Part shown: positions 13,969 through 29,797 of the stretch, piece after piece
Layout: each line of letters starts with the position of its first letter
Numbering within the stretch: the stretch's first letter is position 1
Origin: a virus
Lineage: Duplodnaviria > Heunggongvirae > Uroviricota > Caudoviricetes
Strand: one strand, 5' to 3'
Virus record (IMG/VR): IMGVR_UViG_2671180378_000015
Length of the DNA: 29,797 bases
Made by a program: the position numbers and the translations under genes
The notes under the pieces: model-generated
Told to the model about the DNA's origin: nothing
The model's database searches: none
Seen by the model: only the letters and a program-made list of their open reading frames with translations

Positions 13969-15476
13969 TGGCAATTCTTGATGATGTGATTGGCGTTTTT
14001 TCACCAGGATGGAAAGCGGCAAGGCTGCGTTCCCGTGCGGTGATCCAGGCTTATGAGGCCGTAAAAACGACGCGGACACACAAAGCCCGACGGGAGAACC
14101 GAACTGCCGACCAGTTAAGCCAGTACGGGGCCGTGTCGTTACGTGAGCAGGCCCGTTACCTTGATAACAACCACGATCTGGTTATTGGTGTATTTGACAA
14201 GCTGGAAGAACGGGTGGTGGGGAAAAACGGGATTATTGTCGAGCCACATCCGGTATTACGCAATGGGGCCATTGCCCGTGACCTGGCTGCGGAGATTCGC
14301 ACCCGATGGAGTGAATGGTCTGTCAGCCCGGAAGTCACCGGGCAGTTTACCCGTCCGATGCTGGAACGTCTGATGCTTCGTACCTGGCTGCGCGATGGTG
14401 AGGTGTTTGCCCAGATGGTTTCCGGGCGCATAAACAGCCTGGCGCCTTCTGCCGGTGTTCATTTCTGGCTGGAGGCGCTCGAGCCGGACTTTATTCCCAT
14501 GACTAGTGATGAGAGCAACAGGCTGAATCAGGGCGTGTTTGTTGATGACTGGGGGCGTCCCGAAAAATATCTGGTGTATAAAAGCCGTCCCGTATCCGGA
14601 CGGCAGATGGAAACCAAAGAAGTGGATGCAGAGCGAATGCTGCATCTTAAATTTGTTCGCCGTCTGCACCAGATGCGCGGGACGTCTTTGTTGTCCGGTG
14701 TGCTGATCCGCCTCAGTGCCCTGAAAGAATATGAAGATTCTGAGCTGACTGCAGCAAGGATCGCCGCTGCTCTGGGGATGTACATCAGGAAAGGCGACGG
14801 GCAGAGCTATGAACCGGATGGTAATGGCAGAAAGGAGAATGAACGTGAGCTTACCATTCAGCCGGGCATTATTTACGACGATCTGAAACCCGGCGAAGAA
14901 ATCGGAATGGTGAAGTCGGATCGCCCCAATCCTAACCTTGAAACTTTTCGTAATGGTCAGTTGCGTGCCGTGGCGGCGGGCAGTCGTCTGAGTTTTTCCA
15001 GTACAGCGCGCAACTATAACGGCACTTACAGCGCCCAGCGTCAGGAGCTGGTTGAATCCACTGATGGCTACCTGATCCTGCAGGACTGGTTTATTGGTGC
15101 CGTCACCCGCCCGATGTATCGTGCATGGCTGAAACAGGCTGTGGCATCCGGTGTTATCAGGCTACCCCGCGATCTTGACCGTTCTTCACTGTATACCGCG
15201 GTGTATTCCGGACCAGTGATGCCGTGGATTGACCCTGTTAAGGAGGCTGAGGCCTGGAAAATCCAGATTCGTGGTGGAGCGGCGACAGAATCAGACTGGG
15301 TACGTGCTGGTGGTCGTAATCCGGATGATGTCAAACGTCGGCGCAAGGCCGAAATTGATGAAAACCGCAAGCTGGATCTGGTATTTGATACCGATCCGGC
15401 CAGTGATAAAGGAGGCAGTAGTGCCGCAACGAAACGACAGGAGCCGCAGCACACCGACGACCAGTCCGAAGAATAA
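13968..15476 (+). CDS. Portal protein (lambda gpB-like), about 502 aa
   Basis: ORF track frame 13896-15476; start taken at ATG 13968 (MAILDDVIGVFSPGW) overlapping W stop; size and position. Confidence 0.8.
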   Translation: MAILDDVIGVFSPGWKAARLRSRAVIQAYEAVKTTRTHKARRENRTADQLSQYGAVSLREQARYLDNNHDLVIGVFDKLEERVVGKNGIIVEPHPVLRNGAIARDLAAEIRTRWSEWSVSPEVTGQFTRPMLERLMLRTWLRDGEVFAQMVSGRINSLAPSAGVHFWLEALEPDFIPMTSDESNRLNQGVFVDDWGRPEKYLVYKSRPVSGRQMETKEVDAERMLHLKFVRRLHQMRGTSLLSGVLIRLSALKEYEDSELTAARIAAALGMYIRKGDGQSYEPDGNGRKENERELTIQPGIIYDDLKPGEEIGMVKSDRPNPNLETFRNGQLRAVAAGSRLSFSSTARNYNGTYSAQRQELVESTDGYLILQDWFIGAVTRPMYRAWLKQAVASGVIRLPRDLDRSSLYTAVYSGPVMPWIDPVKEAEAWKIQIRGGAATESDWVRAGGRNPDDVKRRRKAEIDENRKLDLVFDTDPASDKGGSSAATKRQEPQHTDDQSEE

Positions 15477-26020: not shown

Positions 26021-26080
26021 TGAAAAACGTTTTATGTGAAACCGCCTCCGGGCGGTTTTGTCGTTTATGGAGCGTTAGGA

Positions 26081-29000
26081 ATGGGTAAAGGCAGCAGTAA
26101 GGGGCATACTCCGCGCGAAGCGAAGGACAACCTGAAGTCCACGCAGTTGCTGAGTGTGATCGATGCCATCAGCGAAGGGCCGATTGAAGGTCCGGTGGAT
26201 GGATTAAAAAGCGTGCTGCTGAACAGTACGCCAGTGCTGGACACTGAGGGGAATACCAACATCTCCGGCGTCACGGTGGTGTTCCGGGCCGGTGAGCAGG
26301 AGCAGACACCGCCGGAGGGATTTGAATCCTCCGGATCCGAGACGGTGCTGGGGACGGAAGTGAAATACGACACGCCGATCACCCGGACCATCACGTCGGC
26401 AAACATCGACCGTCTGCGCTTTACCTTCGGTGTGCAGGCACTGGTGGAAACCACCTCAAAGGGGGACAGGAATCCATCGGAAGTCCGCCTGCTGGTTCAG
26501 ATACAACGTAACGGTGGCTGGGTGACGGAAAAAGACATCACCATTAAAGGCAAAACCACCTCGCAGTACTTGGCCTCTGTGGTGGTGGATAACCTGCCGC
26601 CGCGCCCGTTCAGTATCCGGATGCGCAGGATGACGCCGGACAGCACCACAGACCAGCTGCAGAACAAAACGCTCTGGTCGTCATACACCGAAATCATCGA
26701 TGTGAAACAGTGCTACCCGAACACGGCACTGGTCGGCGTACAGGTGGATTCGGAGCAGTTCGGCAGCCAGCAGGTGAGCCGTAATTATCATCTGCGCGGG
26801 CGTATTCTGCAGGTGCCGTCGAATTATAACCCGCAGACGCGACAATACAGCGGTATCTGGGACGGAACGTTAAAACCGGCATACAGCAACAACATGGCCT
26901 GGTGTCTGTGGGATATGCTTACCCATCCGCGCTACGGCATGGGGAAACGTCTTGGTGCGGCGGATGTGGATAAATGGGCGCTGTATGTCATCGGCCAGAA
27001 TTGCGACCAGTCAGTGCCGGACGGCTTTGGCGGCACGGAGCCGCGCATCACCTGTAATGCGTACCTGACCACACAGCGCAAGGCGTGGGACGTTCTCAGT
27101 GATTTCTGCTCGGCGATGCGCTGTATGCCGGTATGGAACGGGCAGACGCTGACGTTCGTGCAGAACCGACCGTCGGATAAGGCGTGGACCTATAACCGCA
27201 GTAATGTGGTGATGCCGGATGATGGCGCGCCGTTCCGCTACAGCTTCAGCGCCCTGAAAGACCGCCATAATGCCGTTGAGGTGAACTGGATTGACCCGAA
27301 CAACGGCTGGGAGACGGCGACAGAGCTTGTTGAAGATACGCAGGCCATTGCCCGTTACGGTCGTAATGTTACGAAGATGGATGCCTTTGGCTGTACCAGC
27401 CGGGGGCAGGCACACCGCGCCGGGCTGTGGCTGATTAAAACGGAGCTGCTGGAGACGCAGACCGTGGATTTCAGCGTCGGCGCAGAAGGGCTTCGCCATG
27501 TACCGGGCGATGTTATTGAAATCTGCGATGATGACTATGCCGGTATCAGCACCGGTGGTCGTGTGCTGGCGGTGAACAGCCAGACCCGGACGCTGACGCT
27601 CGACCGTGAAATCACGCTGCCATCCTCCGGTACCACGCTGATAAGCCTGGTTGACGGAAGTGGCAATCCGGTCAGCGTGGAGGTTCAGTCCGTCACCGAC
27701 GGCGTGAAGGTAAAAGTGAGCCGTGTTCCTGAGGGTGTTGCTGAATACAGCGTATGGGGGCTGAAGCTGCCGACGCTGCGCCAGCGCCTGTTCCGCTGCG
27801 TGAGTATCCGTGAGAACGACGACGGCACGTATGCCATCACCGCCGTGCAGCATGTGCCGGAAAAAGAGGCCATCGTGGATAACGGGGCGCACTTTGACGG
27901 CGAACAGAGTGGCACGGTGAATGGTGTCACGCCGCCAGCGGTGCAGCACCTGACCGCAGAAGTCACTGCAGACAGCGGGGAATATCAGGTGCTGGCGCGA
28001 TGGGACACACCGAAGGTGGTGAAGGGCGTGAGCTTCCTGCTCCGTCTGACCGTAACAGCGGACGACGGCAGTGAGCGGCTGGTCAGCACGGCCCGGACGA
28101 CGGAAACCACATACCGCTTCACGCAACTGGCGCTGGGGAACTACAGGCTGACAGTCCGGGCGGTAAATGCGTGGGGGCAGCAGGGCGATGCGGCGTCGGT
28201 ATCGTTCCGGATTGCCGCACCGGCAGCACCGTCGAGGATTGAGCTGACGCCGGGCTATTTTCAGATAACCGCCACGCCGCATCTTGCCATTTATGACCCG
28301 ACGGTACAGTTTGAGTTCTGGTTCTCGGAAAAGCGGATTACCGATATCAGGCAGGTTGAAACCACAGCCCGCTATCTTGGCACGGCGCTGTACTGGATAG
28401 CCGCCAGTATCAATATCAAACCGGGCCATGATTATTACTTTTATATCCGCAGTGTGAACACTGTTGGCAAATCGGCATTTGTGGAGGCTGTCGGTCGGGC
28501 GAGCGATGATGCGGAAGGTTACCTGGATTTTTTCAAAGGCCAGATAACCGAATCCCATCTCGGCAAGGAGCTGCTGGAAAAAGTCGAGCTGACGGAGGAT
28601 AACGCCAGCAAACTGGAGGAGTTTTCGAAAGAGTGGAAAGACGCCAACGATAAATGGAATGCCATGTGGGGCGTCAAAATTGAGCAGACCAAAGACGGCA
28701 AACATTATGTCGCGGGTATTGGCCTCAGCATGGAGGACACGGAGGAAGGCAAGCTGAGCCAGTTTCTGGTTGCCGCTAACCGTATCGCGTTTATTGACCC
28801 GGCAAACGGGAATGAAACGCCGATGTTTGTGGCGCAGGGCAACCAGATATTCATGAACGACGTGTTCCTGAAGCGCCTGACGGCCCCCACCATTACCAGC
28901 GGTGGCAGTCCTCCGGTATTTTCCCTGACATCAGACGGAAAGCTGACCGCTAAAAATGCGGATATCAGTGGCAGTGTGAATGCGAACTCAGGAACGCTCA

Positions 29001-29494
29001 ACAATGTCACGATTAACCAGAACTGTACGATTAAGGGCATGCTGGAGGCGACCCAGGTCAGAGGGGATTTCGTTAAAGCTGTATCAAAAGCCTTCCCGAA
29101 AAAAGTCGGTACGTGGGGTAACACGGAAACACCAAACGGTACGGTTACAGTCACCATCAGCGATGATCATAACTTTGACCGCCAGATTATTATTCCGCCC
29201 ATTATTTTTAACGGTATAGCGTATGACGATCCGGGGAGCGGAAATAACCCAGGAGGCACGCGATACACGGGTTATGGTTTTGAAGTTCGCAAAAACGGCG
29301 TATTAATCGCATCCAGAGAAACTAAAGGGGCCATTCCCGGTAGTTACAGTGCAGTTATTGATATGCCTAGTGGTGGTGGTAGCGTCACTCTGGAGTTTAA
29401 GATTTTCCAGAAAGGCAATCAGGGGGCAGGCAATATCACCGATTGTACGGTGATTGTGACCAAAAAAGCTGCTTCCGGCATCAGTATTCGTTGA
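26081..29494 (+). CDS. Central tail fibre / host specificity protein J (lambda gpJ-like), about 1137 aa
   Basis: Start [21 protein letters not shown] as lambda J; length and position; fibronectin-like repeats in the middle. Confidence 0.9.
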
Positions 29495-29516: not shown

Positions 29517-29540
29517 GGCGTCAGGAATGACGCCTTTTTT
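29517..29540 (+). terminator. Rho-independent terminator after J
   Basis: ggcgtca ggaa tgacgcc followed by tttttt. Confidence 0.65.
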
Positions 29541-29564
29541 ATTGCAGAAAAGCGAGAGGTAATT

Positions 29565-29797
29565 ATGCGTAAAGTTTGTGCAGCCATTTTGTCCGCAGCC
29601 ATCTGTCTGGCCGTATCCGGTGCGCCTGCATGGGCGTCTGAGCAGCAGGCCACGCAGAGCGCGGGGTATCTTCATGTCTCGACGAACGTTCCTGGCAGCG
29701 ATGAACTGAACGGGATTAACGTGAAATACCGTTATGAGTTTACGGACACACTGGGGATGGTGACGTCGTTCAGCTATGCAGGAGACAAGAATCGCCA
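29565..29797 (+). CDS. lom: Lom-like outer-membrane protein (Ail/Lom family), 5' part only (runs off window end)
   Basis: MRKVCAAILSAAICLAVSGAPAWASEQQATQSAGYLHVSTNVPGSDELNGINVKYRYEFTDTLGMVTSFSY: signal peptide plus beta-barrel start matching lambda Lom. Confidence 0.8.
   Translation, partial: MRKVCAAILSAAICLAVSGAPAWASEQQATQSAGYLHVSTNVPGSDELNGINVKYRYEFTDTLGMVTSFSYAGDKNR

Follow-up and report, generated by a model that had tools for sequence, protein, structure and literature searches.

The classical assignment of the phage 434 receptor is OmpC, whereas the receptor of phage lambda is LamB. Both PMC11101478 and PMC3509688, the latter citing Fuerst and Bingham 1978, name OmpC as the receptor of phage 434 and state that it is also bound by lambda when the 434 J protein is present; the 434–OmpC assignment as used here rests on these secondary citations. 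J sequences of this host-range type are available for phage 434 and lambda h434 (OL657226, OL657227, and OM418627; Feiss et al. 2022, PMC9119081). Structures have been solved for lambda gpJ (P03749; PDB 8iyk, 8xck, and 8xcj), the receptor-binding domain (RBD) being closed in 8xck and LamB-bound in 8xcj, and for A8 gpJ, whose J tip occurs naturally in an E. coli prophage and has been built into engineered lambda vectors; A8 gpJ is closed in 9wca and OmpC-bound in 9wcb. Residues 960–1132 of J have been described as a "specificity region" that circulates independently and has its indel hot spots at 1012, 1048–1049, 1077–1078, and 1107 (Maddamsetti et al. 2018, PMC6646904). Fusion of the natural A8 and 1A2 tips to lambda J at residue 964 retargets particles to OmpC in an OmpC variant-specific manner, the 1A2 tip supporting delivery via the OmpC of EDL933 and not via that of MG1655 (PMC11338833). 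Further OmpC-using lambdoid J tips are represented by 1A2 gpJ, which is an O157-like J tip, and by evolved phage 21 J, whose native receptor is LamB and which gained OmpC use via point mutation.

Here we describe the J protein encoded in a 29,797-nt stretch of E. coli prophage DNA (the whole of which is referred to as the window). Comparison with the systems above reveals that this J is a mosaic, in which a lambda-type body is joined at about residues 953–973 to a 434-type receptor-binding module, and its receptor is most likely OmpC; we assign this combined reading a probability of roughly 85%.

Architecture of J and the boundary within it

The features of the locus, all on the plus strand, are the following.

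26081–29494, plus strand: J (tip attachment/central tail fiber protein), 1137 aa plus stop; ATG at 26081, stop at 29492–29494.
26081–28999, plus strand: lambda-like J body, residues 1–973, 950/973 identical to lambda J; its parts are hub domains, FNIII domains, an alpha-helical shaft, and the central straight fiber (domain names from PMC11101478).
28937–28999, plus strand: conserved junction, residues 953–973; the last long lambda-identical stretch, 21 residues.
29021–29491, plus strand: 434 (h434)-type RBD, residues 981–1137; 153/157 identical to 434 J, 36.8% identical to lambda.
29517–29543, plus strand: hairpin GGCGTCA-GGAA-TGACGCC followed by TTTTTTATT, between J and lom.
29565–29797, plus strand: lom (Ail/Lom outer-membrane protein), 5′ portion, truncated where the window ends; synteny context for J.

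Although the program-made open reading frame opens at a GTG at 26036, 15 codons 5′ of ATG 26081, the latter (MGKGSSKG...) is the start used by lambda, 434, and RefSeq J proteins. From this start, the protein shows no differences over 1137 residues from WP_000515505.1, annotated as "phage attachment tail tip protein J" in an E. coli O26 prophage. Six Pfam families, Phage-tail_3, FNIII-A_GpJ, Ig_J, Ig_J_second, Phage_Tail_Tip, and Ig_GpJ_C, all score above their cut-offs and follow one another in the lambda order, as is the case for a lambda-like gpJ. The gene is also positioned at the end of the tail block, 3′ of L, K (a C40 peptidase), and I and 5′ of lom and the side tail fiber, as judged from the order of reading frames in the window and from the PGAP annotation of the near-identical O26 locus. 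In phage 434, lom likewise lies 3′ of J and at equal spacing. The hairpin at 29517–29543 was called by the scan on the minus strand only, where its tail is CTTTATTGGG, and the T-run on the plus strand was read by eye; together, hairpin and T-run look like an intrinsic terminator. The phage 434 record has a terminator annotated between J and lom, to which the hairpin is likened by annotation rather than by alignment.

Alignment of the protein with lambda J (NC_001416, 15505–18903) separates two very different regions. Residues 1–973 are identical to lambda at 950 of 973 positions (97.6%) and gap-free, in agreement with the sequence-only reading of this DNA, which had held that about the first 980 residues follow lambda. 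In contrast, residues 974–1137 are identical in only 64 of 170 alignment columns (37.6%), 17 of which are gaps (Fisher exact p = 2e-80 for body versus C terminus). The same reading had placed a divergence from lambda in the last 150 or so residues; the divergent part comprises 157–164 residues, and the motif at which it was said to start, NCTIKG..., lies at residue 981 (nucleotide 29021). At the DNA level, identity to lambda in steps of 100 nt is 90–100% over the J body, being given as 94–99% up to 28980, then 68% at 28981–29080 and 41–50% beyond, so that the drop spans only about 100 nt. The indels relative to lambda consist of +2 residues at 1011/1012, +6 at about 1043–1049, +1 at 1078/1079, and +2/−6 around 1099–1114, and these coincide with the published hot spots or sit a few residues away. 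With 37.6% identity and 17 gap columns (37% by tblastn), the specificity region (960–1132) is not of the LamB-binding lambda type, and that assignment was rejected. The RBD (29021–29494) also differs in composition, with a GC content of 47.5%, lower than in the remainder of J (57.4%) and in the lambda RBD (54.9%), which suggests a lower-GC source for the 434-type module. Columns I22–N35 of our alignment A1, which cover the junction common to lambda, 434, and other RBD types, are invariant, and residues 953–973 are likely the crossover zone for module exchange.

The J proteins of 434 (OL657226) and lambda h434 imm21 (OM418627) were aligned with the window J in the same way. Like the window protein, the 434/h434 J is 1137 aa long and has the same architecture and C-terminal module. 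Over residues 974–1137, the window J is identical to 434 J at 160 of 164 positions (97.6%) with no indels and to lambda h434 J at 159 of 164 (97.0%), again gap-free, and the RBD DNA is 98.2–98.4% identical to that of 434 and lambda h434. Because the region aligns without gaps with that of these two phages and is almost the same in sequence, the J C terminus is the classical and already known h434 host-range module. "Lambda h434 imm21" is also the top whole-gene J match in the phage collection, at 97.2%. Only four RBD substitutions separate the window from 434 (N1019D, I1108V, Q1110H, and G1115R, window residue first), whereas lambda h434 carries W at 1115 and, in addition, D1050N. Since 434 J and window J show 113 nucleotide differences over the whole gene, the window J body belongs to a lineage other than that of 434. 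That lambda h434 exists means that the 434-type module works on a lambda body.

Laboratory 434-derived stocks differ among themselves within the RBD, residue 1115 being R or W and residue 1050 D or N. Because variation among G, R, and W at 1115 is found in wild E. coli prophage proteins as well (clusters P0008 and P0014), this residue appears to be a natural polymorphic hot spot.

Occurrence of the receptor-binding module

Among 243 phage records, identity to the window RBD reaches 90% or more in 74 (99% or more in 20 of these) and stays below 60% in 169, with lambda among the latter at 37%. Because not a single record lies between 60% and 90%, the RBD types appear to be discrete. Identity is 100% in at least three phages, ASU11, Stx2_EH2201, and mEp460_ev081. 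In complete E. coli genomes, the 475-nt region is found in 2092 of 5426 (coverage of at least 80%), with 620 records matching at 99% or more, and the exact amino acid sequence is present in NCBI clusters P0001 and P0012, which have hundreds of members. The window RBD is therefore among the commonest J alleles in E. coli and the arrangement is one already catalogued, which corrects the sequence-only reading in one respect, as the divergence had been presented there as unusual.

Several database reading frames (P0005, P0006, P0016, and P0017) have the RBD fused to unrelated N termini, for example to about 85 residues from the start of tail protein L, and have the appearance of prophage remnants in which an internal deletion spared the J tip.

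The distribution of identities also bears on how the C terminus arose. The domain is homologous to that of lambda, as indicated by its Pfam family and fold, and diversifying selection is documented for the region (PMC6646904), which would be in keeping with a C terminus that diverged in place from a lambda-type ancestor by point mutation, with no exchange of modules. Such a history would not readily produce a boundary of about 100 nt at which flanking DNA that is 94–99% identical to lambda gives way to RBD DNA that is 41–50% identical and contains several indels, nor a GC shift of 10 points. In addition, the same RBD is found at 95–100% identity on differing J bodies and in differing genomes, including 434, Stx phages, mEp460, and cdtI, and intermediates of 60%–90% identity are absent. 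The abrupt boundary, the change in GC content, and a bimodal distribution of identities led us to reject in-place divergence, which we regard as extremely improbable. The data instead support the acquisition of a 434-type module by a lambda-type J.

The positions at which the window differs from 434 fall among those that are recurrently polymorphic within the 434 type, namely 1004, 1008/1009, 1019, 1049, 1099, 1108, 1110, and 1115. These sites were placed by means of the published indel hot spots, the text of the lambda gpJ structure paper giving no residue ranges for loops L1–L4; by this measure, 1049 and 1108–1115 are located in hot-spot loops, and 1108, 1110, and 1115 adjoin the lambda 1107 hot spot. 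Every residue that the window has at these sites is common in the cluster representatives, and in most cases it is the majority state.

Prophage context

Window positions 161–29653 differ from the prophage of E. coli O26 RM10386 (NZ_CP028126.1) by a single base, at 14787. The early and lysis genes of the O26 prophage bear the names of Qin cryptic-prophage genes (flxA, ydfV, relBE, hokD, rem, ydfU, ydfT, cspB/F/I, rrrQ, and rzpQ), and these are followed by a complete lambda-like set of head and tail genes. To our knowledge, the Qin prophage of K-12 is without such a structural gene set.

At its left edge (positions 1–166), the window matches the terminal part of an IS600-like element (IS3 family), with 94.6% identity to the IS600 copy at the O26 locus, so that an insertion sequence abuts the prophage. 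At the other end, positions 29654–29797, which lie inside lom, show 16 differences in 126 nt from the O26 prophage and then become unalignable, which resembles a recombination breakpoint within the gene. The Lom residues encoded here (…SFSYAGDKNR) resemble Lom of phage 434.

This context raises the question of whether J functions in adsorption at present. Should the prophage be defective, J would have no current adsorption role and would serve only as sequence with which incoming lambdoid phages can recombine, which is compatible with the identity of the module described above. The window begins in the IS600-like end, the O26 locus carries insertion sequences on both sides and inside the side-tail-fiber region, the early genes bear the names of a cryptic prophage, and many database reading frames that end in this RBD are truncated or fused. 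However, J is intact and full length, it follows a complete lambda-like series of head and tail genes, and the identical RBD is carried by phages that have been isolated and form plaques, ASU11 and mEp460_ev081 among them. We give a defective prophage appreciable weight, though clearly less than an even chance, and consider below the J tip as a receptor-binding module of the 434 type.

Fold and receptor of the J tip

The C-terminal region scores well above the gathering threshold of PF12421 (Ig_GpJ_C; residues 1001–1136, 88.3 bits versus a cut-off of 26.2). A search of PDB sequences with the last 197 residues returned A8 gpJ (9wca, E = 7e-53) as the best match, followed by lambda gpJ (8xcj and 8iyk, E about 1e-44). 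We also obtained an AlphaFold2 model, made from a 15-sequence alignment and representing a monomer of a trimeric domain. Its mean pLDDT is 74.9, with most RBD blocks at 76–95 and low confidence for the N-terminal 55 residues; a poor model of the preceding fiber segment is to be expected, since the monomer is taken from an intertwined trimer. Foldseek comparison of the model retrieved 8xck, 8xcj, 9wca, and 9wcb, that is, the closed and receptor-bound states of both the lambda and A8 RBDs, at E = 3e-15 to 1e-13, and all other matches were at about 1e-3 or weaker. The window tip thus combines an Ig_GpJ_C profile match with the predicted Ig-like fold of the solved gpJ RBDs, and the model indicates that these are the same domain with different loops.

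Lambda J shares with the window protein the domain order, the C-terminal Pfam family, and the Ig-like fold along with a 97.6% identical body, but it binds LamB, and the two RBDs agree at only about 37% of positions, indels occurring close to lambda residues 1012, 1043–1049, 1078, and 1099–1114. A8 gpJ resembles the window J in that its Ig_GpJ_C tip has been swapped onto a lambda-type body, and it binds OmpC. Its RBD is nonetheless of another type, being about 42% identical over residues 981–1137 (P0065) and terminating in ...KKSTAGISIS, unlike the end of the window protein. The 1A2 tip differs as well; its DNA in the published supplement, read by eye, terminates in ...VVMKKATAGITIS, and its nearest relative, P0075, is about 38% identical to the window RBD. 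The window module is hence neither of the engineered OmpC tips of PMC11338833, as A8 is too distant and 1A2 has a different C terminus. Because A8 and 1A2 represent other sequence types and yet also target OmpC, several RBD types converge on this porin.

A receptor other than LamB is expected for the window J because the receptor-binding module at its C terminus is not that of lambda. The sequence-only reading had likewise suggested that a different outer-membrane receptor might be used, and alignment with J proteins of known receptor supports this, as identity over the C-terminal region is 97.6% to the OmpC-type 434 J and 37.6% to the LamB-type lambda J. By homology and from the literature on 434, the receptor is most likely OmpC instead of LamB. 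A literature search covering PhiR/ECOR13 phages, mEp460, and "h434" together with OmpC found no receptor data for phages with the exact RBD, and a receptor-prediction preprint (10.64898/2026.04.02.716166), which deals with Drexlerviridae-type GpJ and sets lambda aside, was uninformative here.

By analogy to the lambda and A8 gpJ structures, J would trimerize and its three C-terminal Ig-like domains would form the tip of the central fiber. The distal loops would then enter the extracellular mouth of a trimeric porin, which for the 434 type would be OmpC and not LamB. Binding would spread the tip, with the central straight fiber, which is about 98% identical to that of lambda, twisting as a result, and the helical shaft would flip so that the tail tip opens for DNA ejection. 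Since the parts preceding the RBD are all about 98% lambda-like, a departure from lambda is expected solely in recognition.

The residues that distinguish the window within the 434 type could in principle shift its specificity, such that N1019, G1099, I1108, Q1110, and G1115 restrict the tip to certain OmpC variants of wild E. coli or allow use of another porin, for example OmpF. The differences from 434 do lie at recurrently polymorphic positions, those at 1049 and 1108–1115 in hot-spot loops; natural OmpC-binding gpJ tips can be variant-specific, as shown by 1A2 on EDL933 and MG1655 OmpC; and the porin use of lambda and phage 21 is changed by one to four RBD substitutions. On the other hand, the module is 97.6% identical to that of 434 without indels, its residue states are common and mostly the majority ones, and the laboratory 434 stocks vary at 1115 (R/W) and 1050 (D/N) while the h434 phenotype is, by name, kept. 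We therefore consider a shifted specificity improbable and favor a tip that uses OmpC as 434 does. A related and still doubtful idea, to which we give only slightly more credence, is that these same five residues tune the tip to certain OmpC variants of wild or STEC E. coli. Changes by the 1107 hot spot alter receptor use in lambda (PMC6646904). If such tuning were true, the alleles of the 434-type family would form a natural series that parallels the diversity of OmpC.

The presence of a 434-type J tip at this locus is a standard instance of lambdoid mosaicism and in itself nothing new for phage biology. It adds one further documented case of J-tip module exchange, a principle that has already been exploited to retarget lambda-based DNA delivery to OmpC. 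For the prophage, it makes the host range predictable, which would be OmpC-dependent and LamB-independent.
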